Below are positions 8,641 through 42,492 of a DNA stretch of 64,000 nt, piece by piece. Source of the DNA: an uncultured Eubacteriales bacterium (GTDB lineage: Bacteria > Bacillota > Clostridia > Oscillospirales > Acutalibacteraceae); assembly GCA_964370115.1 (NCBI GenBank), contig CAYJIA010000002.1:9361-73360 (forward strand). Direction: 5' to 3'. A program made the translations under genes and the position numbers. The notes under the pieces were generated by a model that made no database searches, was not told the DNA's origin, and saw only the letters and a program-made list of their open reading frames with translations. Each line of letters starts with the position of its first letter. Position 1 is the stretch's first letter.

Positions 8641-8688
8641 TTTTACCTCTTTTCATACAATGCACACGCACTGCATAATATATAATAT

Positions 8689-8798: not shown

Positions 8799-8829
8799 AT
8801 ATAAATACATTATAAGGGATTTGATTACG

Positions 8830-19022: not shown

Positions 19023-19125
19023 GGACTAATGACTAAAGGTGAAAGGTGAAAGACTTAAGGTTCACGCCAACGGCGTGTTATAAATATAAAAAATGCTTTG
19101 CATTTTTCACTACAATTATTAATTA
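19023..19125 (-). repeat. composite AT-armed repeat (minus orientation)
   Basis: The reverse complement reads taattaataattGTAGTGAAAAATGCaaaGCATTTTTTatatttataaCACGCCgttGGCGTGAACCttaag plus an arm gtctttcacctttcacctttagtcattagtcc. Its core is near-identical to the copy at 36598..36720. Confidence 0.8.
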
Positions 19126-23156: not shown

Positions 23157-23867
23157 ATGATAGCTAAAATAAATTCACTGCAAAGTCTAGGCGCAAGCGA
23201 CGGCCCCGGCATAAGATACGTAGTTTTTATGCAGGGCTGTAACCTGCGTTGTGGCTGTTGCCATAACCCCGAAACTTGGGATATGACGGGCGGAACCGAC
23301 ATGACAAGTGACCAAGTTTTTGAAAAAATATTAAGATACAAACCGTACTTTGGAGAGCACGGCGGCATTACAGTATCTGGTGGAGAAGCTTTGTTGCAGG
23401 CAAAATTTGTGGCAGAGCTTTTTACTCTTGCCAAAAAGTCGAAGAAAAATAAAATTCACACCTGCCTTGACACAGCGGGACATATAATGAATTCAAACGT
23501 AACAGAACTGCTAAATGTAACAGACCATGTATTGCTAGATATTAAGTACTGCACCGAAGAGGACTACCAAAAGTACGTGCGCTGTTCGCTTAAAAAGGTC
23601 TTAGAATTTTTAGAAATACTAGGCGAAAAAAACATAAAAACAACGCTGAGAACAGTAATAATCCCAACAAAAAACGACAATGAAAAAATGATAGAGTTTT
23701 TAAACATGCTAAAACAAAAGCATAAAAACGTGGATAAAATAGAACTTTTACCGTTCAGTAACGTCTGTATAACAAAATATGAGAATATGGATACTCAGTT
23801 TCCATTTAAAGATATCCCAGTCCCGACAAAGGAAAAAATGGAGGAGCTGAGGAGACTAGTTAATTAA
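23157..23867 (+). CDS. pflA: pyruvate formate-lyase activating enzyme (radical SAM)
   Basis: CNLRCGCCHNPETW cluster motif and GGITVSGGEAL. Confidence 0.93.
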   Translation: MIAKINSLQSLGASDGPGIRYVVFMQGCNLRCGCCHNPETWDMTGGTDMTSDQVFEKILRYKPYFGEHGGITVSGGEALLQAKFVAELFTLAKKSKKNKIHTCLDTAGHIMNSNVTELLNVTDHVLLDIKYCTEEDYQKYVRCSLKKVLEFLEILGEKNIKTTLRTVIIPTKNDNEKMIEFLNMLKQKHKNVDKIELLPFSNVCITKYENMDTQFPFKDIPVPTKEKMEELRRLVN

Positions 23868-23990
23868 TAATTAATAATGAATAATTAATAATTGTGGAAC
23901 ACGCCTCTGGCGTGTTTTTAATTATAAAATCCGAAGGATTTTCGCAACAATTCTCCATTCTCCATTCTCCATTATTAATTCTCAATTCCA
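23862..23990. repeat. composite AT-armed repeat, module order rearranged
   Basis: Starts at the pflA stop: ttaattaataattaataatgaataattaataatt-GTGG-AACACGCC-tct-GGCGTGTT. Then AAAATCC-gaa-GGATTTTCGCAAC in the opposite orientation, and a right arm aattctccattctccattctccattattaattctcaatt. Confidence 0.75.
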
Positions 23991-24002: not shown

Positions 24003-24033
24003 AAAAAAATCGACCCGAAGGTCGATTTTTTTT
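24003..24033. terminator. bidirectional intrinsic terminator (htrA / pflA side)
   Basis: AAAAAAAATCGACC-cgaa-GGTCGATTTTTTTT, with A and T tracts on both sides. Confidence 0.8.
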
Positions 24034-25471
24034 AGTTATCCACAGGATTATTAGCTATTACTCTTTCATACTGCGCTAGGGTCACGGTTATTTCCATTCC
24101 TATTTTGCCCTCTAGTTGTCTGTCTACTGTCAGTGTGACTGTGTCCCCTGGGCTTTTTGTTGTGACTAGTGAAGTTATAGTTTGAGCGGTTGTGACTTCT
24201 ACATCGTCGATATGTGTTATTATATCGCCCTCTTTTAGTCCTGCCGCCACAGCTTCTTCAGTTGTGACTTCAGCTACATACATACCAGAGCTTAGCCCGT
24301 AAAAACTAGCAGTCATAGCATCTAGATATTGTCCTGAAATACCAACTATTGCCCTGTCATATACATATCCGTACTCTCTAAGGTCAGATATAATAGGTTG
24401 CGCTACTTCTGTAGGTATCGCAAATCCTAGGCTTTCATAGCCCTCTGCAACGATTTTTATAGTGTTAATTCCTATTACTTGTCCGTACTCGTTTACAAGC
24501 GCACCGCCTGAGTTACCAGGGCTTATAGCTGCGTCTGTTTGAATGTAGTTCATAGTGTAGCCTGAGTCGCTTGTGACCTCACGGTTTAGTCCCGATACAT
24601 AACCCACTGTTACAGTCGAGCTAAATGCCACACCGCCTGGGTTTCCTATTGCCACAACTTGCTCACCTACTGATAGGTCGTCGGCCGAGCCAAACTCTGC
24701 TGGAGTAAGGCCTGTTGCCTCAATTTTTAAAAGTGCAAGGTCGGTTACTTCGTCTTGACCTACGAGTGTTGCCTCGTAAGTATCGCCGTTGTGTAAAACT
24801 ACTTTATAAGAAGTTGCGTCTGCAATAACGTGTTGATTTGTCACGATATAGCCGTCTTCTGTCATTACTATGCCAGAGCCCTCACCTATCGCTGTGGGTT
24901 CACTGCTTTGACCTCCCATAAAGCCTTGGCTAGTAGGGGCAAAAGCCTGTACAGCTACTACGGATGGAACAACTTTGTCAGAAATTTCTTCTGGAGTTAA
25001 AACGCCTGTCGAGCTCGTAGTGGTTTGCGTGGCGCTCTCGTCAATTATTTTTGTAATAGTAAATGCGCTGTTACCGTCTGTTCCACTTTCAACATTTATC
25101 ACGCCCGACTGTATCATCACCACAAATGCTCCAACGGATACCGCTGCCGAGAAAGCACAGCACAAGGCGCCTGCCATAACTTTTACCCAAGTCTTTGTAC
25201 CACTCTTAGCCTTTTTCTCATTTTGCGGTGGAAGTGGTGCCTGTGGTGGCACGTAATTTGTGTTTTGCTCACTCCCCCATGTGTAATAAGAGTTTTGATG
25301 CTCTACAGGTGGTGTGTATCTATAACTGCCGTCCTCTTGTATCGGTGAGGCGTTATTTATATTGTTGTTTTCATAAATATTATTTTGATTGTTAGTGTCT
25401 TGTGTGTCTTGTGGATTGTTGTGCTCTGGTTCTCTGTTGTTGTTTTCATATGGATTATACATAAAATTCAC
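24032..25471 (-). CDS. htrA: HtrA/DegP-family serine protease with PDZ domain
   Basis: 479 aa. Catalytic residues appear in TNQHVI, DLALLKI and GNSGGAL. There is a C-terminal PDZ, an N-terminal Asn/Gln-rich low-complexity tail, then one TM helix. Confidence 0.9.
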   Translation of the reverse strand: MNFMYNPYENNNREPEHNNPQDTQDTNNQNNIYENNNINNASPIQEDGSYRYTPPVEHQNSYYTWGSEQNTNYVPPQAPLPPQNEKKAKSGTKTWVKVMAGALCCAFSAAVSVGAFVVMIQSGVINVESGTDGNSAFTITKIIDESATQTTTSSTGVLTPEEISDKVVPSVVAVQAFAPTSQGFMGGQSSEPTAIGEGSGIVMTEDGYIVTNQHVIADATSYKVVLHNGDTYEATLVGQDEVTDLALLKIEATGLTPAEFGSADDLSVGEQVVAIGNPGGVAFSSTVTVGYVSGLNREVTSDSGYTMNYIQTDAAISPGNSGGALVNEYGQVIGINTIKIVAEGYESLGFAIPTEVAQPIISDLREYGYVYDRAIVGISGQYLDAMTASFYGLSSGMYVAEVTTEEAVAAGLKEGDIITHIDDVEVTTAQTITSLVTTKSPGDTVTLTVDRQLEGKIGMEITVTLAQYERVIANNPVDN

Positions 25472-25596
25472 TCCTTCTATTAATATCGTCGTATAATCGG
25501 TGGTTTGTTGTTATGTTAGTATTATGCACCGACTATGTGAAGACAATGTGATAGAAAGAGTGAATGTTTGATGAAGATTTGATGATAGTTTAGAGC

Positions 25597-25745
25597 GAAT
25601 TTAAATTGTGGTAAATTTCGGGCGAATGATATCCGCCCCTACAACGGAAAACATTAAATTATACTGTAGGGGCGAACCTGTGTGTTCGCCAGTAGGGTTT
25701 CCGCAAATCCAAGGCAAGAGCAGAGCCCTTGCCCTACGATTTAAA
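25597..25745. repeat. REP-like hairpin cluster (types D, A, B)
   Basis: GGGCGAAT-gat-ATCCGCCC-CTAC (25621-25643, minus orientation). GTAG-GGGCGAAC-ctgtgt-GTTCGCC (25667-25691). GGCAAGAGC-aga-GCCCTTGCC-CTAC (25714-25738, minus orientation). All carry the same linker motifs as the array at 26300..26852. Confidence 0.85.
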
Positions 25746-25772
25746 ATGTAGTTTATATGAACTCGGCTAGAG

Positions 25773-26138
25773 TTAGCGCAGTATATATCGCCTGCTTTTT
25801 GCCATATTCGCTATCATCATATTTATGGGAATTACAAATAAATTAATCGCAAGTAAGCTGAAAAAAATATTTTGAGGATACCATGCTACGCCTGTTTGTG
25901 AACCTATATTTAGAAATTGAAATATATTCATAGGACCTAAATCATTATAAGAATGAAGTTCAATCCACGGGAAAATCAGTCCAAATTTATAAAAATAGGC
26001 AATAAATGTGTTATCGGCACCACCAGAAAATAAATATGGAGTTGCTCCGACAGTATGAATGAAGGAAAATAAAAATAGGAATAAAGAAGTTCCAATATTT
26101 GTAGCTTTGTTAAGTCCGTATTTTTTGAACAGTTTCAT
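25773..26138 (-). CDS. small hydrophobic hypothetical protein embedded between repeat clusters
   Basis: 121 aa with several hydrophobic segments and no recognisable motif. Flanked on both sides by the same A+B hairpin pair in direct orientation. Confidence 0.5.
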   Translation of the reverse strand: MKLFKKYGLNKATNIGTSLFLFLFSFIHTVGATPYLFSGGADNTFIAYFYKFGLIFPWIELHSYNDLGPMNIFQFLNIGSQTGVAWYPQNIFFSLLAINLFVIPINMMIANMAKSRRYILR

Positions 26139-26299
26139 AAGTCCACCTCAAAGTTCTATCCAATTAAAAAAATGAATGATAAATAGTGCACATTATTATC
26201 ACCTACTAATTAAAGCCTTTATATATCTATTATATAATAAGCTGCAACAAATATATATTTATATTAGCAATATAATAATATGAAAAAAATCTTATTTTA

Positions 26300-26852
26300 G
26301 GTGTAGGGGCGACCATTGTTCGCCAGTAGGGTTTCCGCAAATCCAAGGCAAGAGCAGAGCCCTTGCCCTACGGTTAGAAATTGAAATTTGTGAAAAATAA
26401 AAGGGTGCCGAAACGACACCCTTGCAGCGGAAATTTAAATTGTGGTATATTTCGGGCGGATGATATCCGCCCCTACAACGGAAAACATTAAATTTAGGTG
26501 TGGGGTTTCCGCAAATCCAAGGCAAGAGCAGAGCCCTTGCCCTACGATTTTAAATGAAAATTTGTGAAAAATAAAAGGGTGCCGAAACGACACCCCTACG
26601 GTTTTAATTTAAATTGTGGTAAATTTCGGGCAGATGATATCCGCCCCTACAACGGAAAACATTAAATTTAAGTGTAGGGGCGAACCTGTGTGTTCGCCAG
26701 TGGGGTTTTCGCAAAACCCAAGGCAAGAGCAGAGCCCTTGCCCTACGGTTAGAAATTGAAATTTGTGAAAAATAAAAGGGTGCCGAAACGACACCCTTGC
26801 AGCGGAAATTTAAATTGTGGTATATTTCGGGCGGATGATATCCGCCCCTACG
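26300..26852. repeat. tandem array (3 units, 174 and 201 bp spacing) of four GTAG-flanked GC-rich hairpin types
   Basis: Type A: GTAGGGGCGA..TTCGCC at 26303 and 26673 (missing in unit 2). Type B: GGCAAGAGCAGAGCCCTTGCC-CTAC at 26347, 26521, 26722. Type C: GGGTGCCGAAACGACACCC at 26403, 26577, 26778. Type D: GGGCGGATGATATCCGCCC-CTAC at 26454, 26628, 26829. Linkers are conserved: gtttccgcaaatccaa, aaattgaaatttgtgaaaaataaaa, aaatttaaattgtggtatatttc, aacggaaaacattaaattta. Confidence 0.9.
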
Positions 26853-26935
26853 ATTTTAAATTAAAAAATCCAAAGGATTTTCACAACAATTCTACATTCT
26901 CAATTCTACATTCTCCATTATTAATTCTCAATTAT
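26853..26935 (-). repeat. AT-armed repeat abutting the ECF-S gene stop
   Basis: The minus strand reads gat aat TGA (gene end), then gaattaataatggagaatgtagaattgagaatgtagaatt-GTTG-TGAAAATCC-ttt-GGATTTTTT. Confidence 0.75.
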
Positions 26936-27491
26936 CCAAAAGCCCGCTTTTGGATAAAGCCAATTTCACCGTCATACATAGTGGAACTGCTATTATTATT
27001 GCTATTACTGCGTTAATGCTTGATGTGCCCAGTCTTGTTATCATTGACGGGATAAGTGCCTCGGGGACACTTCCCTCTAATAGCCCCGACACATAGCTTT
27101 TTGAAAGATATAAGATTATATAGGCAATTTGCCCCATTGCACAAAAGCTTATTCTGGTAACTAAAAGTTTTACACCTGTGGATTTTGACTTTGCTATAAA
27201 TCCAGGCAGCATTGCGAGTATGAATTTAAACACAAAGGTAAACGGCGCCGAGGTGATGTACACAGGGTTTGTAAGGTCGTATAGTGCCGAGCCTATGCCT
27301 GCCGAAAGTCCACCGCCCACAGGGCCTAAAATCAGTCCAGACAATAGGCAAAATACATTGCCTAAATGTATACGGCTGACGTCTCCTATTGCGATTGGTA
27401 TAGGTATGCTGATAAAGTTTGAAACAAATACCAGTGCGCCAAACACGCCGATAAGCGCAGTTCTATGTATTTTCTTTTTCTCCAAGTTCAT
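26928..27491 (-). CDS. ECF-transporter substrate-specific (S) component
   Basis: 187 aa, about 6 TM, Gly-rich helix pattern typical of ECF S components (GNVFCLLSGLILGPVGGGLSAGIGSALYDL). Substrate not assignable. Confidence 0.7.
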   Translation of the reverse strand: MNLEKKKIHRTALIGVFGALVFVSNFISIPIPIAIGDVSRIHLGNVFCLLSGLILGPVGGGLSAGIGSALYDLTNPVYITSAPFTFVFKFILAMLPGFIAKSKSTGVKLLVTRISFCAMGQIAYIILYLSKSYVSGLLEGSVPEALIPSMITRLGTSSINAVIAIIIAVPLCMTVKLALSKSGLLDN

Positions 27492-27515
27492 TTCCTCCTA
27501 AATAAAAACCCTAAA

Positions 27516-28688
27516 TTAAATCCTTGCTACGCCACTGTCTTTTGCAGCCCTTGCAACTTCTTTTGCAACTTCCATAGAGACAGTCTTGTCCAAGGCACTT
27601 GGAATTATATACTCCTCGTTTAATTCATCTGCTTTAACATAGTTTGCAATCGCATGAGCCGCCGCTATTTTCATCTCGTCGTTTATGTCGCTTGCCCTTA
27701 CATCAAATGCACCTCTGAATATTCCAGGGAATACAAGCACGTTGTTTATTTGATTGTTAAAGTCTGAGCGCCCTGTGCCGACTACTCTTGCCCCACCTTT
27801 TTTCGCCTCGTCTGGGAAAATCTCAGGAGTTGGGTTTGCCATTGCAAAAACGATGGCGTCGTCGGCCATGGTGGATACCATTTCGGCAGTAACTATATTA
27901 GGTGCAGAAACTCCGACAAATACATCCGCATTTTTCATCGCATCGGCAAGTGTTCCTGTCATGTTGTCTTTATTAGTAAACTCGGTCATGTCCTTTTGAG
28001 CAAAAGTCATACCCTCGGCATTTTTATGTAAAATTCCGATTTTATCACAAAGAGTGATGTTTTTTACGCCATAGCTTAAAAGAAGTTTTGCTATGGCAAT
28101 ACCAGCAGCACCTGCGCCGTTTATTACCATTTTAATGTCTTCTTTGTTTTTGTTTACTATTTTAAGTGCATTAATAAGAGCCGACAAAACAACTACAGCT
28201 GTTCCGTGTTGGTCGTCGTGAAAAACAGGTATGTCCAAGTTTTTCTTGATAATCTCTTCGATTTCAAAGCATTTTGGTGCGGCAATGTCCTCTAAATTTA
28301 TACCGCCGAATGAACCTGCTATAAGCTCTATAGTCTTTGCCACTTCTTCTGTGTCTTTTGATGATATACAAATAGGAAACGCGTCCACATCGCCAAAGGC
28401 TTTAAACAAGGCGCATTTGCCCTCCATAACAGGCATAGACGCCTCAGGGCCTATGTCGCCAAGACCTAAAACCGCAGTACCATTTGTGATAACCGCAACA
28501 AGGTTTTTACGGCTTGTATATTTATAAGAATTGTTTACGTCCTTGGCAATTTCAAGACAAGGTGCCGCAACGCCTGGTGTATAAGCCACCGACAAGTCAT
28601 GTTTGTTTTCTAAAGGACAGGTAGTCTCTACTCTAATTTTACCGCCCCATTCTTCGTGTTTTTCAAGTGCAAGTTTATTGTAATCCAT
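27516..28688 (-). CDS. NAD(P)-dependent malic enzyme
   Basis: 390 aa with VFHDDQHGTAVV, dinucleotide fold NGAGAAGIA, and GVAAPC in the N-terminal domain. Confidence 0.9.
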   Translation of the reverse strand: MDYNKLALEKHEEWGGKIRVETTCPLENKHDLSVAYTPGVAAPCLEIAKDVNNSYKYTSRKNLVAVITNGTAVLGLGDIGPEASMPVMEGKCALFKAFGDVDAFPICISSKDTEEVAKTIELIAGSFGGINLEDIAAPKCFEIEEIIKKNLDIPVFHDDQHGTAVVVLSALINALKIVNKNKEDIKMVINGAGAAGIAIAKLLLSYGVKNITLCDKIGILHKNAEGMTFAQKDMTEFTNKDNMTGTLADAMKNADVFVGVSAPNIVTAEMVSTMADDAIVFAMANPTPEIFPDEAKKGGARVVGTGRSDFNNQINNVLVFPGIFRGAFDVRASDINDEMKIAAAHAIANYVKADELNEEYIIPSALDKTVSMEVAKEVARAAKDSGVARI

Positions 28689-28859
28689 AACATTAACTCC
28701 TTTTTTGACATAATAATATATTCTATATTATAGCATATATTATTAAAATTTACACTATAATATTTTATAGCAATTTGTGACAAAATAAGAATAAATATGT
28801 TTTACTTGACAAAATGTCCTCATTTAACATACAATTACGTAAAAGCTTGAGAAAGTTTA

Positions 28860-29720
28860 ATGAAAAATAAAGGGGTAATGAATATGACACAAGCGGTAAA
28901 TCGCGACGGTAAGCGATTTAAAGATGCGTCACAAGGCGTGGCGTTTTTCACATCAAACAAACTAAAAGTAATTGCGGTTTTAACAATGGTGGCGGACCAC
29001 TTTGTAGATGGAATTTTTCCTCCTGACTTAAGCATGGGACCTCCGGCTTGGTGGTGGATGGCGGTTAAATGCCTAGGAAGACTTTCAATTGCGCTGATGT
29101 GCTTTTTTATAGCAGAGGGTTTTCACTACACCTCTAACAAATGGAAGTATCTTTCAAGAATGGCAATTTTTGCGATAATTTCACACGCACCTTATAACCT
29201 ACTTTTTAGTAGGGTAGACGCACCGATTTTGTCAGTATTAAACCCACTAAACGGGACAAGCGTTATCTGGGCACTCACAATGGGACTTTTAGCGCTCATG
29301 ATAGTAAAAAGTGAAGCTATAAAAAATAATGTTTTAGGCATACTTTTAAAAGTAATAGGAGTTGGAGTTTGCTGCGCCCTAGCATATACAGCAAACTGGA
29401 ACTATATAGCAGTACTTTGGATAGTAGGATTTGGAATTTTTAGAGGAAATGTAAAACTACAAACTTTATCATTTATCATAATAGGTACAGGAATTTACGT
29501 CGCACCTATGCTACTTGATTTTTACCAAGGTGACATAAGTTACCTAAAATGGTTCTTCTTTGGAATATACGCCGCAATACCTTTCTACTTCTTATACAGT
29601 GGCAAAAGAGGAAAAAAATCAAAAGCAGTAACTTGGTCGTTCTATATCGTATATCCAGGGCATCTACTGCTGTTCTACGCGATAAAAGCACTGGACTTTT
29701 ATGGGATAATAAATATTTGA
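28860..29720 (+). CDS. TraX-family membrane protein
   Basis: Polytopic membrane protein with the TraX-type N-terminus KVIAVLTMVADHF. The likely start is ATG 28884 behind AAGGGG. Confidence 0.7.
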   Translation: MKNKGVMNMTQAVNRDGKRFKDASQGVAFFTSNKLKVIAVLTMVADHFVDGIFPPDLSMGPPAWWWMAVKCLGRLSIALMCFFIAEGFHYTSNKWKYLSRMAIFAIISHAPYNLLFSRVDAPILSVLNPLNGTSVIWALTMGLLALMIVKSEAIKNNVLGILLKVIGVGVCCALAYTANWNYIAVLWIVGFGIFRGNVKLQTLSFIIIGTGIYVAPMLLDFYQGDISYLKWFFFGIYAAIPFYFLYSGKRGKKSKAVTWSFYIVYPGHLLLFYAIKALDFYGIINI

Positions 29721-29841
29721 GTAATTTATAATTGAGAATGTAGAATGAATAATTGTGGTGAAAATCCTTCGGATTTTTTTATTTAAAACACGCTGTAGGC
29801 GTGAACCTTAATTCTCAATTCTACATTCTCAATTCTCAATT
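29721..29841 (+). repeat. composite AT-armed repeat, best-preserved copy (perfect 17-bp terminal inverted repeat)
   Basis: AATTGAGAATGTAGAAT (29730-29746) is the exact reverse complement of ATTCTACATTCTCAATT (29818-29834). Between them lie GTGG-TGAAAATCC-ttc-GGATTTTTTT (29755-29780) and CACGC-tgtag-GCGTGAACC (29789-29807). Confidence 0.85.
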
Positions 29842-29872
29842 AAAAAAGAGGAGGGCATCGCCCTCCTCTTTT
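29842..29872. terminator. bidirectional intrinsic terminator
   Basis: AAAAAAGAGGAGGGC-atc-GCCCTCCTCTTTT. Confidence 0.8.
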
Positions 29873-30065
29873 ACCCTATTAACCTCAAATTCGTTTCTTT
29901 TGATTCAATATACATGTCCTCGCATTTTCTTTGACTTTCAATAAGTCTAATTGCCGCAGTGCAAGAGTTTACGGTTGCGTCGGCATGGCTTGATTTTGTC
30001 AGCAAATCAATTGCCGCCTCCGCTGCTATAAACATTTCCATATACATTTTTTTGTAGTTTGCCAT
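29871..30065 (-). CDS. small hypothetical protein (64 aa)
   Basis: ORF behind AAAGGAGA with a helical sequence (MANYKKMYMEMFIAAEAAIDLL...). Resembles small conserved clostridial ORFs of unknown function. Confidence 0.5.
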   Translation of the reverse strand: MANYKKMYMEMFIAAEAAIDLLTKSSHADATVNSCTAAIRLIESQRKCEDMYIESKETNLRLIG

Positions 30066-30235
30066 TTCTTTGTCTCCTTTTAATTTTGAGTGGGTGCTAA
30101 ATTTATATTATCATGTTTCAAAGCAAATATACCCGCCTTTGCCCATTTAATTTAATCAAAACATGTAATAAACAAATGAATTTTGATAGAAAATGTCGAT
30201 AAAATAAAAAAATAAAAATTTTTTTATAAAAACAG

Positions 30236-30264
30236 TTGACAAATTATTAAATCCATACTATAAT
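30236..30264 (+). promoter_or_regulatory. sigma-A-type promoter of the tRNA pair
   Basis: TTGACA (30236-30241), 17 nt, TATAAT (30259-30264), about 38 nt upstream of tRNA-Met. Confidence 0.8.
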
Positions 30265-30302
30265 GTCTAAGTCGCGGTGGTAAATAACACGACACTTTAT
30301 AT

Positions 30303-30379
30303 GGCGGCATAGCTCAGCTGGCTAGAGCATTCGGTTCATACCCGGAGTGTCGATGGTTCAAGTCCATTTGCCGCTACCA
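30303..30379 (+). tRNA. tRNA-Met (CAU), elongator type
   Basis: 77 nt, GGCGGCATAGCTCAGCTGGCTAGAGC...GGTTCATACCC...GGTTCAAGTCC...GCCGCTACCA. Cloverleaf with anticodon CAT and an encoded CCA. The G1-U72 pair argues against an initiator. A lysidine-modified Ile2 tRNA cannot be excluded. Confidence 0.85.
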
Positions 30380-30384
30380 TACAA

Positions 30385-30459
30385 GGCCCGTTGGTCAAGC
30401 GGTTAAGACACCGCCCTTTCACGGCGGTAACACGAGTTCGATTCTCGTACGGGTCACCA
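30385..30459 (+). tRNA. tRNA-Glu (UUC)
   Basis: 75 nt, GGCCCGTTGGTCAAGCGGTTAAGACACCGCCCTTTCACGGCGG...GTTCGATTCTCGTACGGGTCACCA. Anticodon TTC, encoded CCA. Confidence 0.92.
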
Positions 30460-30465
30460 CACATT

Positions 30466-30503
30466 AAAGCAACTTCTGATTATTTGAAGTTGCTTTAATT
30501 TTT
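30466..30503 (+). terminator. intrinsic terminator after the tRNAs
   Basis: AAAGCAACTTC-tgattattt-GAAGTTGCTTT, followed by AATTTTT. Confidence 0.75.
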
Positions 30504-30673
30504 GAATTTAAAGCAAACTTCATAAAATGTTGTATTTAAAAGTATTATACATCTTCAAAGTGTTTTATATTGTATTATACAACTTATTGTTGTTTGACAT
30601 CATTATACAGCGGTAAACCACAATATTTTGTTGTAATTTGTCGACTGAAAATAAATTTTTTAAGGAGCACGTT

Positions 30674-31168
30674 ATGAAGAAAATTTTAATGGCTTTAGTG
30701 TGCATGATAGCACTACTTTTCACAGCTTGTACATCGACTGGAAACACAGCGACAGAGCTTACTTATGATAAGGATAACGACGACGTAGTGGCAGAAGATT
30801 TTGACAACAATCTTGACGGCCTTGCAGATTACCTAGAGGAAAAAACACTAATAGGCGGTGAGGCGTTTGAAATGTCATACGACTTTATTTCTGCGATAGG
30901 CGGAGAAAAATACTTCTTTGTGTCCGAAGGTATTACAATGTCTTGTGAATTATACGAATACGACCTAGAAAATATGGACGACAAGGCAAATGAAGTAATA
31001 AATTCGATAAAAGAAAACGGATACTTCATGTCACTGGATACACAAGTAGAGGCAATACTAAGCGATAACGGAAAATACGTAATGGTTCTAGGCGGAGAAG
31101 TAGAAAACGACGCAGTAAAAGAGCAAACAGAAGATTTAAAAGAAAGCTTTAACGAGTTTTATAAATAA
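30674..31168 (+). CDS. lipoprotein, unknown function
   Basis: Start moved to ATG 30674 behind AAGGAG. Signal peptide MKKILMALVCMIALLFTAC with a lipobox. Acidic mature part. Confidence 0.75.
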   Translation: MKKILMALVCMIALLFTACTSTGNTATELTYDKDNDDVVAEDFDNNLDGLADYLEEKTLIGGEAFEMSYDFISAIGGEKYFFVSEGITMSCELYEYDLENMDDKANEVINSIKENGYFMSLDTQVEAILSDNGKYVMVLGGEVENDAVKEQTEDLKESFNEFYK

Positions 31169-31199
31169 AAAAAAATCCACCCTTGGGTGGATTTTTTTT
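31167..31199. terminator. bidirectional intrinsic terminator
   Basis: AAAAAAAAATCCACCC-tt-GGGTGGATTTTTTTT. Confidence 0.8.
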
Positions 31200-31200
31200 G

Positions 31201-31318
31201 AAGTAATAAGTAAAAGTTAATAAGTGTAGTTCACGCCTACGGCGTGTTTTAATCGAAAAAATCCGAAGGATTTTCACCATAATTATTAATTATTAATTAT
31301 TCATTATTAATTAATTCT
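31201..31318 (-). repeat. composite AT-armed repeat (minus orientation) supplying the DUF1015 gene stop
   Basis: The minus strand reads ctt gag aat TAA (gene end), then ttaataatgaataattaataattaataatt-ATGG-TGAAAATCC-ttc-GGATTTTTTC-gattaaaa-CACGCC-gta-GGCGTGAAC-tacacttattaacttttacttattac. Confidence 0.8.
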
Positions 31319-32597
31319 CAAGCCCATTCATAACCATTCCTGTAATTACCTTTGGATAGAAGTATGTTGATTTTTGTGGCATTTTTTCGCCTTTGGCGGC
31401 TACCATTGCTATTTCCTCTACCCTTGTTGGGTTCATGATTACTGCGCATTGTACAGTTTTATTTTTTACACTCTCTACTGCTTCGTCAAATGAACGTGTA
31501 TAGGTGAGGTTTACTTGATTTGCCATGTTCTCCTTGTCTATGCCTAAGACTCTTTCGAGTACTAGGTTATGTAGAATAGACACGTCTAGGTTTTTGTATG
31601 CTTCGCTTTTGTCTGGCAAGATGTCGTTCATTACAGATATGTCTTTTAGCACCATCAAAATATATTTATCCTCGCCTGTGTAAAATACATAGGCTTTTTT
31701 GTCGTCATTATAAAGCTTTTCTAGTTCGTCGTTTGCGGTGCTTATGTCGTCTTTATAAGAAATGTCAAAATACTTTTCGCAGTCTTTTACAAGTTTTTCC
31801 ATAGAGAAATTTTCTAAATCTCTTAAAAGTCTATGGGTTGGAAAAACTACCAAGCCCTCGTTTTCCATGTCGCATAAAAGCATCATCACATAGTCGGAGC
31901 CTTTTAGATAAATATTGTTTTCTTCGCAGTATTTTTTGTAGTTAAGAGCGGTTTCGTATCTGTGGTGGCCGTCTGCTATATAGATTTTTCTGCCAACAAA
32001 ATCCTCGCAGATAGAAGATATAGAAAGCTCGTCGTTTACAAGCCATAGCTTGTGGTTTACCAGCCCGTCAAAGTATTCATATCTGGGTTTTTGTATCTTT
32101 GTGTGGTTTTCTAGTTTTTTTAGTGTGACCTGCTCTTTGTCTGAATAAAGAGAATAAATTTGGCTGAAATTGCAGTTAGTCGCCTGCATAAGGTTAAACC
32201 TGTCGGTTTTTGCCTTGGACAAAGTTTCTTCATGTGGCAAAACGATACCGCTTGAAAACTCCTCTAGCTTCACCCTGCAAATAAGTCCTTTAAGGCTTTT
32301 GTCCTCGCCATGGCTTGCCTTTGACTTAAATTCTTGCTCGTAAATATAAATAGCTTCACTCATGTCGTGGGTCAAAATATCGTTTTCTATCCAATCGTTT
32401 AAAGTCTTTTGCGCATCTTCATAGGCGTTTTCACCCTTTGGAAGCTCAAGCCTTATAACATTGTACTCGTTGGTTTTTAAAAAGTTAAGCCTTTGCTCCT
32501 CGCTTATTATGTCGTAAGGAGGACAGCAAAGCTCTCCTATCTTACCTGCCTTTTCCAAATTATACCTAAGCGCCTTAAATCCCTTAATTTCTGCCAT
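31311..32597 (-). CDS. DUF1015-family protein
   Basis: 428 aa. N-terminus MAEIKGFKALRYN...PPYDIISEEQR and the central ADGHHRYETAL are characteristic of DUF1015. Confidence 0.8.
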   Translation of the reverse strand: MAEIKGFKALRYNLEKAGKIGELCCPPYDIISEEQRLNFLKTNEYNVIRLELPKGENAYEDAQKTLNDWIENDILTHDMSEAIYIYEQEFKSKASHGEDKSLKGLICRVKLEEFSSGIVLPHEETLSKAKTDRFNLMQATNCNFSQIYSLYSDKEQVTLKKLENHTKIQKPRYEYFDGLVNHKLWLVNDELSISSICEDFVGRKIYIADGHHRYETALNYKKYCEENNIYLKGSDYVMMLLCDMENEGLVVFPTHRLLRDLENFSMEKLVKDCEKYFDISYKDDISTANDELEKLYNDDKKAYVFYTGEDKYILMVLKDISVMNDILPDKSEAYKNLDVSILHNLVLERVLGIDKENMANQVNLTYTRSFDEAVESVKNKTVQCAVIMNPTRVEEIAMVAAKGEKMPQKSTYFYPKVITGMVMNGLEN

Positions 32598-32618
32598 AGT
32601 TATATCCTCCCTTTTAAT

Positions 32619-33686
32619 TTAACAAATTGTTCCTCCGCCTAAAACCGTGTCGCCGTCATATAAAACGACCGCTTGTCCTGGGCTTATCGCCCTTTGAGGT
32701 TCGTCAAACACAAGCTCTATCTCGTCCTTGCCGTTTGTGTACACCGTACATGGTTGCTCGGTGTGGCGATACCTTATCTTTGCACATGCCCTAAGCTCTT
32801 TTGGCGGGGTTTCAAAGGCTATCCAGTTGAATTTTTCTGCCTTTAAATCTTTTCTAAACAGTTCTTCGTCACTTACAAGTATTACCTTGTTGTCCTCTAC
32901 AGATTTTTCACCCACATACAAAGGAGATTTTAAAGAAAGCCCAAGGCCTTTTCTTTGTCCTATGGTATAGTGTATTATGCCTTTATGCTTGCCTAGTATA
33001 TTATTGTCCTTGTCCACAAAATCTCCCGTAGGATAAACTCTGCCCGAATAGTCTTTAATGGTTTTTGCATAGTCGCCGTCGGGTGCAAAACAAATGTCTT
33101 GGCTGTCTTTTTTGTTGGCATTTATAAAGTCTTGCTCATTTGCAATCTCTCTTGTAGCTGTCTTTTTCATAGTGCCAAGTGGGAACAAAGTCCTAGAAAG
33201 CTGTTCTTGCGACAGAGTGTGAAGCACATAGCTTTGGTCTTTTGTGGGGTCGTCTGCTTTCTTTAAAAGATATCTGCCATTTTCAAATTCCACTTTAGCG
33301 TAGTGACCTGTTACCACGTAATCATACCCTAATTCTTTCGCCCTGTAAAGTAGTTTTTCAAATTTTAAAAATCTATTGCACTGAATACATGGGTTTGGGG
33401 TGTATCCTTTTTCATACGCCTCTATAAAATAATTTATAACAAGCTCTTCAAACTCGCCCGTAAAATTATATAAGTGATGCTCAATGCCAAGCTTAGAGCA
33501 AACTTTTTTTGCGTCTTCTATATCGTCAGCAGTACAGCAGGAATTTTCTTTCTGCAAGCTTTCGTCCTTGTTGTTGTGTAGTTTTAGGGTGATGCCCATA
33601 CAGTCATACCCTTTTTGCACCATAAGATACGCGGCGACACTGCTGTCTACTCCGCCACTCATGGCAATTAATGCTTTTTTGCTCAT
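32619..33686 (-). CDS. mnmA: tRNA 2-thiouridine(34) synthase
   Basis: PP-loop AMSGGVDSSVAA and conserved Cys (NPCIQCN, DICF). Confidence 0.93.
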   Translation of the reverse strand: MSKKALIAMSGGVDSSVAAYLMVQKGYDCMGITLKLHNNKDESLQKENSCCTADDIEDAKKVCSKLGIEHHLYNFTGEFEELVINYFIEAYEKGYTPNPCIQCNRFLKFEKLLYRAKELGYDYVVTGHYAKVEFENGRYLLKKADDPTKDQSYVLHTLSQEQLSRTLFPLGTMKKTATREIANEQDFINANKKDSQDICFAPDGDYAKTIKDYSGRVYPTGDFVDKDNNILGKHKGIIHYTIGQRKGLGLSLKSPLYVGEKSVEDNKVILVSDEELFRKDLKAEKFNWIAFETPPKELRACAKIRYRHTEQPCTVYTNGKDEIELVFDEPQRAISPGQAVVLYDGDTVLGGGTIC

Positions 33687-33786
33687 AGCCTTAATCTCCT
33701 TGTTATATTTTTAACATCATTCTAACATATTTTTCACCATAGGTAAATGAAAAATCTTAATTAAACATTGAATTTTTTTAGAAAAA

Positions 33787-35190
33787 GTGGTAAAATTTGA
33801 AAGAATAAAAAAGAATGGAGTAACTACTTTTAAAATGCCAGAAAAAATTAAATCAGCACAAAAACTTGGTGAGGCAAAAATGCTTCCCTTGATTTTGACA
33901 ATGTCACTGCCCGTTATGTTCTCAATGATGGTACAAGCCCTTTATAACATAGTGGACAGTTATTTCGTGTCACAGTACAGCACAGAGGCGCTGGCGGCGG
34001 TGTCGCTTGCCTTTCCTATTCAGAACTTAATAATTGCCTTTGCTGTGGGCACGGCAGTGGGCGTGGGCTCGCTAATTTCAAGAAAACTTGGCGAGGGAGA
34101 CGTAAAATACGCACAAAAGGTCGCAACACACGGACTACTACTAAGTGTTTTAAGCTGGGTATTGTTCTTAGTATTTAGCCTAGTTGCCTGTGAAGCGTTC
34201 TTTAGACTTTATGAAAGCAACGAAAATATAATATCAATGGGTACGTCGTATCTATCCATAGTAACAATGTTTTCTTTCGGTTCGTTCATACAAATTTCCT
34301 TTGAAAAAATCCTACAGTCAACAGGAAATATGATGGTGCCGACATTAATTCAGCTTTTAGGCGCAGGTATAAACATAGCACTTGACCCTGTATTTATTTT
34401 CGGCTACTTCGGTGTTCCTGCAATGGGTGCAACCGGTGCGGCAATCGCAACAGTTGTCGGACAAATTATCGCAGGTATCACGGTTATGATAGTTGTGTTT
34501 GTTAAAAAAGACGGTTTAAAACTAGACTTTAAAAACTTTAAACCGAGCGGAAAAATTATAAAAGACATCTATGCCGTAGGCATACCTTCAATCATCATGC
34601 AGGCAATAGGAACAGTTATGACCATGGCGTTAAACTTCATACTTGCAGGTTTTTCGGCGGCTGCATACACAGTTTGCGGTATACTTATTAAACTGCAATC
34701 CTTTGTGTTTATGCCAATTTTTGGACTTTCAAGCGGACTTATGCCGATATTCGGTTATAACTTTGGCGCAAAAAATAGAAAAAGACTCATGTCTTGTCTA
34801 AAAATCGGCTGTGTAATTGCACTGATAATTAACATAAGCGGAACACTTGCCTTTATGATTTTTCCAGTACAGCTATTAAATATTTTCAACCCTACACCTG
34901 AAATAATTGAAATAGGTGTGCCGGCGATGAGGATTTTCTCTAGCGGATTTTTCCTTGCCGCCTTGGGTATAACAATATCCACGCTGTTCCAAGCAATGGG
35001 AAAAGGTGTATACAGCCTATTTAACTCGGTGTTAAGACAACTTGTAGTACTGGTTCCAATGGCCTATGTTTTATCACATATAAGTGTGTTTGCACTGTGG
35101 TTTGCATTCCCAATCAGCGAAGTGGTATGTATGATATACATTTTCATAATGTTTGCAAGGCTATATCATAAACAAATAAAACATTTATAA
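33787..35190 (+). CDS. MATE-family efflux transporter
   Basis: 467 aa, 12 TM, MATE N-terminal consensus. The true start may be a downstream ATG (33835). Confidence 0.85.
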   Translation: MVKFERIKKNGVTTFKMPEKIKSAQKLGEAKMLPLILTMSLPVMFSMMVQALYNIVDSYFVSQYSTEALAAVSLAFPIQNLIIAFAVGTAVGVGSLISRKLGEGDVKYAQKVATHGLLLSVLSWVLFLVFSLVACEAFFRLYESNENIISMGTSYLSIVTMFSFGSFIQISFEKILQSTGNMMVPTLIQLLGAGINIALDPVFIFGYFGVPAMGATGAAIATVVGQIIAGITVMIVVFVKKDGLKLDFKNFKPSGKIIKDIYAVGIPSIIMQAIGTVMTMALNFILAGFSAAAYTVCGILIKLQSFVFMPIFGLSSGLMPIFGYNFGAKNRKRLMSCLKIGCVIALIINISGTLAFMIFPVQLLNIFNPTPEIIEIGVPAMRIFSSGFFLAALGITISTLFQAMGKGVYSLFNSVLRQLVVLVPMAYVLSHISVFALWFAFPISEVVCMIYIFIMFARLYHKQIKHL

Positions 35191-35207
35191 GGTGGAAAAG
35201 CGAAAAA

Positions 35208-36230
35208 ATGAAAGTTTTTTTGAAGAAAAATATTACTGTAGTTATAATGATTGCATTTTTGCTATTGGTGGCACTTCTTTACTTTTTCGTTAAAGGAGAC
35301 GAAAAAGAGGAGCTCACCACTTTTTCCATGGGTTCATATGTAACACAAACCGTGTATGGAAGCAGTGGACAAGAGGCAATGGCTCAGGTAGCAAGTGAAA
35401 TAACAGAGCTTGAAAACAGAATATCGTGGCGGATAGATGGCAGCGACACTTCGCTTATAAACAAAAGTGAAGAACCAATAAGCGTGGAGCAAGACAGCAT
35501 GGATTTAATAAATCTATGTCTTGAAGTATCTAAAAAAACTCAGGGTGCATTTGACATAAGCATAGCACCCTTAAGCCTTTTATGGGACTTTGACAGTTCC
35601 CCCACCACACTGCCAAGCGATGAAGATATCAAAGAAAAACTAGAGCTTGTACATTATGAAAATATAATAGTTCAAAACGATACAGTGCTTCTTAAAGAAA
35701 ACTCACAAATAGACCTAGGAGCAGTTGGTAAAGGCGCCGCCTGTGATACTGCGGTAGCCGTGTATGAAAGCATGGGAATAAACTCGGCGATAATTGCCGT
35801 GGGAGGCAGTATAGGTACCCTTGGTGAAAACCCTGTAAACGGCAAGTGGAATATAGCTATAAGAGATCCATACGGCTCGCAAAATGCTATGGCATCACTG
35901 AGTATAGAAGAGGGATTTGTGTCGACCTCGGGCACATACGAAAAAACTTTCGAGTATGAAGGTAAAAGCTATCACCATATATTAAACCCAAAAACAGGAT
36001 ATCCGTCGGACAGCGACATAATAAGTGTAACGGTAGTGTGTGACAGCGGAGCATTAAGCGACGCGCTGTCTACCGCCTGCCTCGTATTAGGATATGAAGA
36101 AAGTCTTGCCGTTTTAGAAGACTTTAACGCGCAGGCAGTGTTTGTAACAAAAGACCACGAGATTTATATGACAGATGAAATTAAAGGACAGTTTGAGTTA
36201 TTGTCGGAGGATTTTACCGTAAATGGATAA
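35208..36230 (+). CDS. apbE: FAD:protein FMN transferase (ApbE family)
   Basis: 340 aa with an N-terminal TM anchor and ApbE motifs (AFDISIAPL, DLGAVGKGAA, STSGTYEK, HHILNPKTG). Confidence 0.88.
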   Translation: MKVFLKKNITVVIMIAFLLLVALLYFFVKGDEKEELTTFSMGSYVTQTVYGSSGQEAMAQVASEITELENRISWRIDGSDTSLINKSEEPISVEQDSMDLINLCLEVSKKTQGAFDISIAPLSLLWDFDSSPTTLPSDEDIKEKLELVHYENIIVQNDTVLLKENSQIDLGAVGKGAACDTAVAVYESMGINSAIIAVGGSIGTLGENPVNGKWNIAIRDPYGSQNAMASLSIEEGFVSTSGTYEKTFEYEGKSYHHILNPKTGYPSDSDIISVTVVCDSGALSDALSTACLVLGYEESLAVLEDFNAQAVFVTKDHEIYMTDEIKGQFELLSEDFTVNG

Positions 36231-36600
36231 GAGGAAACTTTTTTCAAAAAGAGATTTAATTATAGTGCTAATACTTTTGGGATTTAGCCTTGTTTTATAC
36301 CTTGCATTAAACAGCTCAGAGCAAGGAATGACCTTTACCGTGAAATCACCACAAAATGAAGATTACCATATAAATTTTGACAAGGCACAGGAAGAAAAAA
36401 CGCTGACGATAGACGGCGATTATCCCCTTGAAGTGCATTATAGTGAGGGCGCAGTATGGATAGAAAACGCCACCTGTCCCGACAAAGTATGTGAGCACTC
36501 GGGCAAAATAAGCAAACAAGGACAAAGCATAATATGCATACCAGCAGGAGTGTCGGTCGAAATAGACGGAGAAGACGAGTTTGACGGGAGGACGTATTGA
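36223..36600 (+). CDS. NusG domain II-containing membrane protein
   Basis: 125 aa. TM anchor plus CPDKVCEHSGKISKQGQSIICIPAGVSVEI, the usual signature of this family next to ApbE and Gx transporter genes. Confidence 0.75.
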   Translation: MDKRKLFSKRDLIIVLILLGFSLVLYLALNSSEQGMTFTVKSPQNEDYHINFDKAQEEKTLTIDGDYPLEVHYSEGAVWIENATCPDKVCEHSGKISKQGQSIICIPAGVSVEIDGEDEFDGRTY

Positions 36601-36720
36601 TAATTAATAATTAATAATGAATAATGAATAATTGTAGTGAAAATGCAAAGCATTTTTTAAAATTAATATCACGCCAATGGCGTGAACCTTACTTATTAAC
36701 TATTAATTATTAATTAATAA
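36598..36720 (+). repeat. composite AT-armed repeat starting at the stop codon of the preceding gene
   Basis: TGA-taattaataattaataatgaataatgaataatt-GTAG-TGAAAATGC-aaa-GCATTTTTT-aaaattaatat-CACGCC-aat-GGCGTGAACC-ttacttattaactattaattattaattaataag. Confidence 0.85.
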
Positions 36721-36729
36721 GAAGTTGCT

Positions 36730-37254: not shown

Positions 37255-37341
37255 GATATTTGTTATGATGATATTTAGAGCAATTTACAAAATATGAAAT
37301 TGGTTTGATATTTATATAAAACTTAGGGAGGATGATTAAAA

Positions 37342-38658: not shown

Positions 38659-38665
38659 TTGTAGT

Positions 38666-40143: not shown

Positions 40144-40146
40144 AAG

Positions 40147-41449: not shown

Positions 41450-41461
41450 GGGAGGTATCAT

Positions 41462-42470: not shown

Positions 42471-42492
42471 CAACTAAAAAAAGGAGCAAGCT

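Follow-up and report, generated by a model that had tools for sequence, protein, structure and literature searches.

The window, by which we mean the whole 64-kb stretch of DNA analysed here, comes from a low-GC bacterium of the order Oscillospirales (Clostridia), for which the closest available species is the uncultured Eubacteriales MAG CAYJJU01. The spacer between its ECF-S and HtrA genes contains an array (25597-26874) of 14 GC-rich hairpins of four types, A to D, which occupy positions 25597-25745 and 26303-26851. Between these two groups, on the minus strand, lies a reading frame for a hydrophobic protein of 121 amino acids (25773-26138), preceded by a GAGGTGG Shine-Dalgarno sequence and bordered on both sides by clusters of hairpins. 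This is probably a real gene that does not belong to the repeat; its product matches no Pfam family, and we found seven distant homologues of about 110 amino acids among 1.8 billion representative proteins.

The larger group of hairpins is built from three tandem units in register (26326-26499, 26500-26673 and 26701-26874), with spacings of 174 and 201 bp, and TRF reports a repeat of period 174 at 26329-26680 (91% matches, score 592). The smaller group forms a partial unit (25598-25747) which is 93% identical to 26606-26718 and represents a direct copy of the segment D-A-B. This architecture of three tandem units plus a partial one had been proposed in a preliminary description of the same DNA, and direct reading, repeat finding and TRF all bear it out. 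The order A(+) B(-) C(-) D(-) recurs in three rounds, so that the hairpins do not alternate strictly; the mixed orientation, the conserved linkers and the variant but still complementary stems were correctly described before. Hairpin A is missing from one 174-bp unit, the absent segment being exactly the GTAG, the stem-loop and one A (26 nt).

The partial unit starts with D0 (25598-25642, minus strand), in which GTAG and the hairpin GGGCGGAT-atc-ATTCGCCC (25620-25642) are followed by the tail GAAATTTACCACAATTTAAATT, as read on the minus strand. Next come A1 (25666-25690, plus strand; GTAG-GGGCGAAC-ctgtgt-GTTCGCC) and B0 (25713-25737, minus strand; GTAGGGCAAGGGCtctGCTCTTGCC), which together form an inverted doublet with the GTAG ends outward. 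Beyond the small gene, the first round consists of A2 (26303-26324, plus strand; GTAG-GGGCGACC-att-GTTCGCC, with one mismatch in the stem), B1 (26347-26371, minus strand, from the hairpin scan), C1 (26401-26423, minus strand; AAGGGTGTCGtttCGGCACCCTT then TTATTTTTCA, without GTAG and terminator-like on that strand) and D1 (26432-26476, minus strand; hairpin GTAGGGGCGGATatcATCCGCCC at 26454-26476 and tail GAAATATACCACAATTTAAATT). In the second round, B2 (26521-26545, minus strand) belongs to the tandem unit devoid of hairpin A, and is accompanied by the terminator-like C2 (26577-26599, minus strand), the sole C copy tagged with GTAG, and by D2 (26606-26650, minus strand; hairpin 26628-26650 plus tail), which has a G.T wobble in the stem on the GTAG strand. 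The third round comprises A3 (26674-26698, plus strand) and B3 (26722-26746, minus strand), both from the hairpin scan, the terminator-like C3 (26776-26798, minus strand) and D3 with its tail (26807-26851, minus strand; hairpin 26829-26851).

According to the hairpin scan, the array hairpins span 19-23 nt, with 7-10 bp in the stem and 3-6 nt in the loop, and a 5' GTAG precedes A in 3/3 copies, B in 4/4, D in 4/4 and C in 1/3, the two other C copies reading CTGCAAGG instead. The earlier view of four GC-rich triloop types, each with a 5' GTAG, therefore stands for base composition and for the tag of every A, B and D copy, and needs correcting for the tag of C and for A, whose loop is 6 nt long in two of three copies and is thus not a triloop. 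We counted 13 occurrences of GTAGGGG in the window; shuffled sequence gave 2.44 +/- 1.67, and none of 100 shuffles reached 13.

In hairpins of the GGGCG class the repeated unit exceeds the hairpin itself, as a 3' tail, GAAAT..CCACAA, is conserved and TTTTCCGTT is often present on the 5' side. G/GAAAT or TTGG follows the A, B and D hairpins, and a T-run is found only after C. The tails do not derive from RAYT transposase sequence. Instead, the tail is the reverse complement of TTGTGGTGAAA, a motif belonging to another intergenic module, one flanked by heptamers. The array is nested in this second intergenic module, whose right border (26864-26938, no strand assigned) consists of a small AT hairpin, AAAATCCaaaGGATTTT with CACAACAA, followed by tandem TTCTCAA-like heptamers (TRF, 26887-26938). 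This module, the terminator-like nature of C and the occurrence of the hairpins inside transposase genes (see below) go beyond the preliminary description. A scan of the window at Rfam gathering thresholds returned two tRNAs and nothing else, and an E-value scan of 25500-26950 gave matches at chance level only, so that no Rfam family accounts for the array. No match to plasmids was obtained with blastn, and promoter-like matches in the region were not more frequent than in shuffles.

Eleven further hairpins are found at five other sites, all of them previously listed and all real and intergenic, which brings the window to 25 hairpins at six loci in 64 kb. They comprise a degenerate B-like hairpin (5722-5747, minus strand; GGCAAAGGCtctGCCTT), a C-like hairpin with a T-rich tail (6303-6329, minus strand; AAGGGCGTCGtttCGGCGCCCTT) downstream of the minus-strand gene 6419-8113, and three clusters: J (plus, degenerate), I (minus, GTAGGGACGACCattGGTCGTCC) and H (plus, GTAGGGGCTATCctatgtGATAGCCC and tail) at 10302-10441; B4, E1 (GTAGGGGCGACGtttCGTCGTCC and tail) and F, all on the plus strand and between plus-strand genes, at 42316-42448; and B5 (minus), G (plus) and E2 (plus) at 62464-62590. 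All 25 hairpins are intergenic in a window with a coding fraction of 0.86, in keeping with the extragenic restriction expected earlier, and the exception across species is the transposase gene itself.

The hairpins are asymmetric with respect to strand. We took a census of hairpins in 113 related loci and the window; as its pre-filter misses B, in which the third inner pair is G.T, B was counted by pattern. Among 737 GC-rich hairpins GTAG led the 5' tetramers with 112 cases, well ahead of the second with 40. On the strand that carries GTAG, 29 stem mismatches were G.T, 2 were A.C and 13 were of other kinds, and in the B, C, D and E stems of the window every mismatch is a G.T on that strand. 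With respect to the neighbouring genes, GTAG mostly lies on the sense strand. When folded as RNA, the array reaches -201.5 kcal/mol on the minus strand (z -9.3) and -188.8 kcal/mol on the plus strand (z -5.5). Hairpin C combines a stem with a T-run on the transcribed strand, and most likely corresponds to a Rho-independent terminator carried along with the duplicated block.

The same hairpins are widespread in related bacteria. Among the matches listed, exact copies of hairpin B are present in at least 113 stretches, and these come from about 33 species-representative assemblies of Oscillospirales, which span 38-60% GC and include Gemmiger, Ruminococcus, Ruthenibacterium, Pygmaiobacter, Acutalibacteraceae and Oscillospiraceae. 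Neighbouring B copies in these matches are mostly inverted with GTAG outward, and 11 places show a doublet of 50-52 bp; the GTAG-outward doublets of the window join unlike hairpins, A with B. One related MAG, CAYJAS01, contains B in at least 20 blocks of 8 kb. No close DNA-level relative of the window was found by blastn against the 113 related loci. Comparison with the nearest species shows an insertion in the window relative to it: the ECF-S/HtrA spacer measures 1456 bp in the window and 126 bp, free of hairpins, in the nearest species. The NusG_II/Hpre spacer holds two such elements in the nearest species and none in the window.

RAYT (TnpA-REP) proteins are Y1/HUH enzymes which bind and cut a single-stranded hairpin with GTAG in front of the stem. 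The preliminary description had reported no transposase in the window, and we likewise found no RAYT gene within the 64 kb. A RAYT-type enzyme is nevertheless encoded in related Oscillospirales genomes and metagenomes, with B and D present exactly inside its genes. In B-bearing genomes a Y1/HUH protein of 160 amino acids is encoded by a gene which holds, in frame, a pair of inverted GTAG hairpins, one before and one after the HUH motif. This protein, which also has the motifs MPNHIHMI and YIxxNP, the latter with the catalytic Tyr, scored 28.8 bits against Pfam Y1_Tnp PF01797 (cutoff 23) and 77.1 bits against NCBIfam REP_Tyr_transpos NF047646, just below the cutoff of 80. A profile search of the PDB matched 4er8 alone (E=6.3e-8), and the best Foldseek match of its AF2 model (pLDDT 84) was 4er8_A, the E. 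coli TnpA-REP (E=4e-8). With its HUH and YIxxNP motifs and a fold nearest to TnpA-REP, the linked protein belongs to the RAYT/TnpA-REP family; its homologues number roughly 5,200.

An inverted GTAG pair lies inside the RAYT gene in 50 of 80 metagenomic relatives, at about nucleotides 110 and 285 with HUH in between, and inside the reading frame of all five intact RAYT genes in the genome loci. RAYT-internal arms folded in 98/100 cases, as compared with 13/608 control windows. The 50 genes contain 47 distinct stems; hairpin sequence varies with RAYT lineage, and where the arms of a single gene differ they do so in a compensatory way, so that pairing is kept. Five RAYT-like genes (L041, L064, L042, L004 and L035) each have two in-frame copies of B, translated as VGQGLCSC and RQEQSPCPT. 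In a sixth RAYT (L046) the segment between the hairpins is precisely deleted, L042 is accompanied by tandem partial RAYT copies, and L039 and L096 have short RAYT-like peptides beside B. A minority shows the classical layout with flanking hairpins (L156, L158). Clostridial RAYTs are lone genes amid housekeeping genes.

Several hairpins of the window have counterparts within these genes. B0 exactly matches RAYT-internal hairpins, window B is identical to that of L115 in 25/25 bases, and D1 is identical to arm 2 inside the RAYT locus L138 in 23/23 bases, D0 differing from the hairpin inside the same locus by one mismatch. A2 and I are within two mismatches of arms inside the RAYT loci L166/L169, and no RAYT-internal counterpart of C, F, G or H was found among the sampled relatives.

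We are therefore fairly confident that the region represents GTAG-type REP elements clustered in the manner of a BIME, from families that have cognate RAYTs in relatives. The REP/BIME reading made earlier from the clustered, intergenic GTAG palindromes is thus supported, and the anatomy of the array, its strand asymmetry, its membership of a cross-species family and the RAYT link on which we draw are all direct observations. A different view would be that the hairpins act purely at the RNA level, as terminators or 3'-end stabilisers of ECF-S and other transcripts, having arisen by local duplication and convergence, with an incidental GTAG and no transposase involved. The terminator-like C, the better folding of the transcribed strand and the G.U-compatible mismatches on the mostly sense strand all speak for such a function, and the last of these, together with the location of GTAG, means that an RNA-level role fits equally well. 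As a full account of the array we nevertheless consider this view unlikely, since A, B and D lack the T-run found in C, the GTAG-outward inverted doublets follow the REPIN pattern, and convergence would not be expected to yield either an identity of 23-25 nt with hairpins internal to the RAYTs of other species or, among the matches listed, an exact B in about 33 species of 38-60% GC.

Fragments of RAYT genes that have kept their hairpins do exist (L046, L042, L039 and L096), and the array could be imagined as the debris of decayed RAYT genes, with hairpins left behind after deletion instead of REPs inserted independently. We regard this as very unlikely, given that a phmmer search with a RAYT query detected no RAYT-like coding remnant in the window at E<=0.01, that the linkers consist of conserved, AT-rich tails with no relation to RAYT sequence, and that the fixed order of four hairpin types would demand four decayed genes. 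The orphan-like small gene, flanked by direct D-A-B copies which are 93% identical, is reminiscent of yet other repeat classes, namely a MITE with terminal inverted repeats, an integron attC arrangement around a 121-aa gene cassette or a CRISPR-like array. However, the array shows neither uniform direct repeats separated by unique spacers nor a target-site duplication, its neighbourhood contains no integrase or cas gene, attC-type R'/R'' motifs are missing, and the hairpins, at 19-23 nt and tagged with GTAG, match RAYT-internal REPs. On this anatomy we discarded a CRISPR, integron attC or MITE identity, which appears extremely improbable.

If the region is indeed a REP cluster, each element would be meaningful on one strand alone, that on which GTAG precedes the stem, and A, B and D would be members of REP families for which the cognate RAYT gene, in relatives, holds the hairpin twice, inverted and with GTAG outward. 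Single REPs or doublets may first have been placed in the ECF-S/HtrA spacer, after which the B-C-D(-A) block could have been amplified by unequal recombination or slippage between the repeated hairpins, giving rise to the 174/201-bp tandem units and to the D-A-B copy beyond the small gene. The tandem structure by itself can be explained by recombination alone. A RAYT of the host genome may have made the copies in the window or may move them, and the transcribed hairpins may end or stabilise the upstream mRNA. More tentatively, the clostridial RAYT gene could house the master REP doublet in two surface loops flanking the HUH strand, making enzyme and substrate inseparable and co-evolving, with the dispersed REPs, doublets and arrays of Oscillospirales, that of the window among them, as offspring produced by the enzyme from single-stranded DNA.

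Among the closest known systems are the REP/BIME elements and rayT (yafM) REPtron of E. coli (Ton-Hoang 2012, PMC3333891; Messing 2012, PMC3479197, PDB 4er8; Corneloup 2021, PMC8266576). They share with the window GC-rich, extragenic imperfect palindromes with a 5' GTAG and, in BIMEs, clusters of alternating orientation with conserved linkers, the orientation in the window being mixed. The E. coli and clostridial systems also agree in having a Y1/HUH enzyme, with a common fold, that is tied to these hairpins, and in tolerating G.T on the tagged strand. However, clostridial stems are short (7-10 bp), with loops of 2-6 nt and no central bulge, unlike E. coli REPs, and in the E. coli control the REPs flank rayT with none inside, whereas the clostridial family has two in frame flanking HUH. 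We found no description of an in-frame REP pair within a RAYT gene, nor any mention of Bacillota as REP hosts, in the REP/RAYT literature searched.

As in the REPIN-RAYT systems of Pseudomonas and Enterobacteria (Bertels and Rainey 2011, PMC3116915; Bertels 2017, PMC5581495), there are inverted short-spacer doublets (B at 50-52 bp in several genomes), lone RAYT genes and several coexisting REP families, each with its own RAYT lineage, although a REPIN consists of two identical inverted REPs and the doublets of the window pair A with B. Group 1 RAYTs are present in Clostridia and, judging by flanking 16-mers, were considered not to be REP-associated (Bertels 2017, PMC5581495); REPs located inside the RAYT gene would be missed when flanks are examined. 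The 24 families listed for the GTAG REP superfamily (Di Nocera 2013, PMC3733652) are spread over eight phyla; no Clostridia or Bacilli hosts turned up when the text of the paper was searched. The members of this superfamily resemble the elements described here in their terminal GTAG, stems of 6-13 bp, loops of 2-3 nt, complementary changes between sub-families, frequent G.T pairs, GTAG-outward dimers and tandem groups reiterated with flanking DNA, and its RAYT genes are flanked by REPs or TIRs that overlap a gene end at most (PMC3733652). The IS200/IS605 elements IS608 and ISDra2 have in common with the clostridial system the Y1/HUH fold (Foldseek matches 2-30), recognition of a single-stranded hairpin and the position of a 5' tetranucleotide 'guide'; their ends, however, are direct and outside tnpA, whereas the clostridial hairpins are inverted and within the gene, and they are multi-copy, whereas clostridial RAYT genes look single and domesticated.

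To our knowledge, nearly all work on REPs and RAYTs has concerned Proteobacteria, and the mode of REP spread is not yet settled. The abundant gut Clostridia offer a rich, multi-family population of GTAG REPs, and the 47 stems in 50 genes supply dozens of naturally occurring pairs of enzyme and hairpin, which could reveal a recognition code for testing in vitro. In-gene hairpins would explain why surveys of flanking repeats left clostridial RAYTs unlinked to REPs, and they provide a handle, via synonymous disruption, on whether RAYTs generate REPs.

On the practical side, such hairpins fragment metagenomic assemblies, flag rearrangement-prone spacers in gut MAGs and yield spurious ORFs. Those at 26292, 26609 and 26756, already judged to be artefacts, fall almost wholly within the array, with ORF 26756-27016 extending over the flanking heptamer repeats, and the two artefact ORFs on the minus strand read VGQGLCSC, which is the translation of hairpin B.

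We confirmed, by direct reading of 25300-27200, repeat finding and TRF, the array of GTAG-tagged hairpins (types A to D) given in the preliminary description, and the five other hairpin sites it had named in the window are all real. Copies of a 174-nt repeat at 26326, 26500 and 26701 lie in register, with 91% and 87% identity and spacings of 174 and 201; TRF reports a tandem repeat of period 174 at 26329-26680 (score 592), and a 113-nt repeat links 25598-25710 to 26606-26718 with 93% identity. On the plus strand the hairpins, numbered by copy, read D0(-) A1(+) B0(-) to the left of a 121-aa gene (25773-26138, minus strand) and, beyond it, A2(+) B1(-) C1(-) D1(-), then B2(-) C2(-) D2(-) with no A, then A3(+) B3(-) C3(-) D3(-). 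Two details required amendment: GTAG, ascribed to all four types, is missing from two of the three C copies, and the triloop does not apply to A, whose loop is 6 nt long in two of its three copies. The 121-aa ORF, hydrophobic and with a good Shine-Dalgarno sequence, is flanked by the 93% identical D-A-B copies; it matched no Pfam family and has 7 distant homologues of ~110 aa among 1.8 billion representatives.

Scanned for hairpins over its full length, the window yields 35 GC-rich ones, 14 of them within 25620-26851. GTAGGGG is present 13 times where 2.4 are expected, a count reached in none of 100 shuffles. All 25 hairpins at the six sites lie in non-coding DNA, though only 14% of the window is non-coding. 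Units of the GGGCG class (D and the variants E, F, G and H) have a common 3' tail, GAAAT-N2-5-CCACAA, and often TTTTCCGTT on the 5' side, while their stems vary among units by complementary changes.

The window (~38% GC) includes genes for PflB/PflA, an HtrA-like protease, an ECF-S component, malic enzyme and the Rnf operon. In the nearest genome available, the uncultured Eubacteriales MAG CAYJJU01 (GCA_964370635.1), the ECF-S protein is 83% identical, and the malic, ECF-S and HtrA genes follow one another as in the window. CAYJJU01 has a plain spacer of 126 bp between ECF-S and HtrA, where the window has 1456 bp, and the NusG_II/Hpre spacer holds two REPs (one of them B) in CAYJJU01 and none in the window.

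Searching one genome per species with the pattern GTAGGGCAAGGGCNNNGCTCTTGCC, we found hairpin B in at least 113 stretches from about 33 assemblies. Among the matches listed, all but two are from Clostridia of the Oscillospirales, with hosts in Oscillospiraceae, Ruminococcus, Gemmiger, Ruthenibacterium, Pygmaiobacter and Acutalibacteraceae. GTAG stands on the 5' side of GC-rich hairpins in these loci far more often than any other tetramer (112 versus 40 for the next); the loci contain many distinct stems, often as GTAG-outward pairs and mosaics. Adjacent B copies mostly form '+-' pairs and, among the matches listed, a 50-52-bp doublet occurs at 11 places in several genomes. These pairs, doublets and mosaics are REP, REPIN (inverted REP doublet) and BIME (mosaic REP cluster) patterns. 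The high-GC MAG Gemmiger sp. JAQUSS01 has long arrays of the same AT-context hairpin B (L099 2975-3600, L034, L009, L025 and L071); in L099, for example, direct copies are spaced 76 bp apart. The arrays make long spurious ORFs. Exact B is also present in contigs of two non-Oscillospirales MAGs, labelled Bacteroides sp. (L090) and Selenomonadaceae (L081), and could reflect mis-binning or horizontal transfer.

A motif scan (HUH...Y..NP) of the fetched loci identified five 160-180-aa ORFs, each with hairpin B inside. These RAYT-type Y1/HUH genes (L041 3-482, L064 596-1126, L042 2006-2536, L004 4883-5428 and L035 2358-3008) carry two in-frame inverted GTAG hairpins. The first (...ATT GTT GTA GGG CAA GGG CTC TGC TCT TGC CGA...) encodes VGQGLCSCR; the second, its reverse complement ~150 nt downstream (...CGG CAA GAG CAG AGC CCT TGC CCT ACA...), encodes RQEQSPCPT, and the HUH motif (MPNHIHMI) lies between them. 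The protein scores above the cutoff for Pfam Y1_Tnp and reaches 77.1 bits, under the cutoff of 80, for NCBIfam REP_Tyr_transpos. The family profile has a single match in the PDB, E. coli TnpA-REP 4er8 (E=6.3e-8), and Foldseek with an AlphaFold model (pLDDT 84.3) ranked 4er8_A best, followed by ISDra2, IS608 and IS200 transposases. Both hairpin-coded peptides are predicted to be loops, residues 39-47 between two strands and residues 89-97 between the HUH strand and the next helix. Compared with E. coli TnpA-REP, the latter segment is an insertion in the clostridial protein; the E. coli K-12 rayT gene, used as a control, contains no GTAG, whereas six GTAG REPs surround it.

At E<=1e-5 the family numbers ~5,200 members. 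Across the protein alignment both hairpin-coded segments change jointly, VGQGLCSCR pairing with RQEQSPCPT, VGQGLAPAE with TAGASPCPT and CRGGAL with RAEQSPAPT, and the GTAG falls in differing reading frames among members. Scanning metagenomes with the family alignment gave 80 loci (L115-L194, 33-56% identity), 50 of which have a GTAG-anchored inverted pair at nt ~110 and ~285. Their arms fold into a hairpin right after GTAG in 98 of 100 cases; among control windows taken from these genes, 13 of 608 do so. These 50 genes hold 47 distinct stems, and within-stem differences between the two arms of one gene comprise 9 compensatory and 6 one-sided changes. The internal hairpins are a feature of the DNA and co-vary with RAYT lineage. 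The other 30 loci mostly have GTAG hairpins partly inside the gene or classically flanking it, so the layouts form a continuum.

Several window hairpins have exact or near matches inside RAYT genes. D1 (GTAGGGGCGGATATCATCCGCCC) is identical at 23/23 positions to the second arm inside L138, and B at 25/25 to both arms of L115 and to the five genome-locus RAYTs. A2 differs by 2 mismatches from the arms of L166/L169, and hairpin I (10369) by 2 compensatory mismatches from L169; for hairpin C, no RAYT-internal counterpart was found in the sample of RAYT loci compared. By these shared hairpins the array is tied to a RAYT family of related bacteria. Together with the GTAG-tagged extragenic hairpins and mosaic clusters, this family with the same hairpins supports the REP/BIME reading of the preliminary description: the array is of REP/BIME type, in a phylum unusual for REPs. 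In the searchable REP/RAYT papers (Nunvar 2010; Ton-Hoang 2012, PMC3333891; Di Nocera 2013, PMC3733652; Quentin 2018; Corneloup 2021, PMC8266576; Bertels and colleagues), REPs flank RAYT genes or at most overlap the gene end, and Clostridia or Firmicutes are not mentioned as REP hosts. Group 1 RAYTs do occur in Clostridia and, by flanking 16-mers, are not REP-associated (Bertels 2017, PMC5581495); gene-internal hairpins would be missed by that test. The gene-internal layout is unreported within the papers searched, which cannot prove it undescribed.

TnpA-REP binds folded single-stranded REPs, requires GTAG and cuts nearby, GTAG probably working like the guide tetranucleotide of IS200/IS605 (PMC8266576; PMC3479197). 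Window hairpins A, B and D may be substrates or products of the clostridial RAYT family that reached the ECF-S/HtrA spacer either singly or as GTAG-outward doublets, the block later being amplified, possibly, via recombination between hairpins. The 174-bp unit differs from the 201-bp units in lacking exactly GTAGGGGCGAACCTGTGTGTTCGCCA (tag, stem-loop and one base), a seamless unit-level indel as expected from Y1-type chemistry; slippage on the repeated GT(A/G)GGG is an alternative. RAYT genes themselves undergo rearrangement via their own hairpins: in L046 (5833-6177) the HUH-coding segment between the two hairpins is precisely deleted (VGQGLCSC|PTVGD), and in L042 (2006-3147) three partial gene copies lie in tandem with a period of 358 bp. 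Short RAYT-like fragments adjoin B hairpins at L039 3656-3730 and L096 6787-7014.

Stem mismatches of B, C, D and E in the window are all G.T on the strand with GTAG 5' of the stem, and A.C on the opposite strand. When the 113 related loci are counted together with the window, the GTAG strand has 29 G.T, 2 A.C and 13 other mismatches. RNA folding gives -201.5 kcal/mol (z -9.3) for the minus strand of the array and -188.8 (z -5.5) for the plus strand. Hairpin structure is therefore relevant on just one of the two strands, in the form of either single-stranded DNA or RNA. Most GTAG strands are the sense strand of adjacent genes, which would fit equally well exposure on the template of lagging-strand synthesis, provided that these genes are co-oriented with replication, and a secondary RNA role such as termination or 3'-end protection. 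Hairpin C scores as terminator-like, with a T-run on the transcribed strand, and we read it as a terminator duplicated together with the REPs.

A second intergenic module consists of tandem AT-rich heptamers (AATTGAG/TAATTAA), TTGTGG(T/C)GAAAA, small hairpins, TTTTCGCCACAA and reverse-complemented heptamers; to our knowledge it belongs to no known family. It occurs in the window at 60646-60775, 29735-29845, 23861-23990, 36596-36729, 31230-31315, 10211-10270, 42240-42300 and 26853-26938, and GTAG REP clusters are located within such modules. The sister-species locus L114 has modules of the same layout with another heptamer (AGTGAAA/G) at 2820-3080 and 8625-8809. A CACGCC-N3-GGCGTG hairpin, with constant stem, variable loop and no GTAG, has six copies in the window, all intergenic and mostly within heptamer modules (6365-6379, 19063-19077, 23900-23914, 29789-29803, 31232-31246 and 36670-36684), and also occurs at L114 ~8703-8717. 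Gene order differs between window 24032-42492 and L114 1-12105: malic/ECF-S/HtrA directly follow RnfB in the sister species, and in the window this block is inverted and precedes the Rnf operon by ~13 kb. Spacers bearing REPs or modules lie at the junctions, such as 42248-42492 after RnfB. After HtrA the sister species has an AbiEii/DUF6088 pair and a prophage-like block with terminase, portal and capsid genes (L114 12261-20588), which is missing on the matching side of the window.
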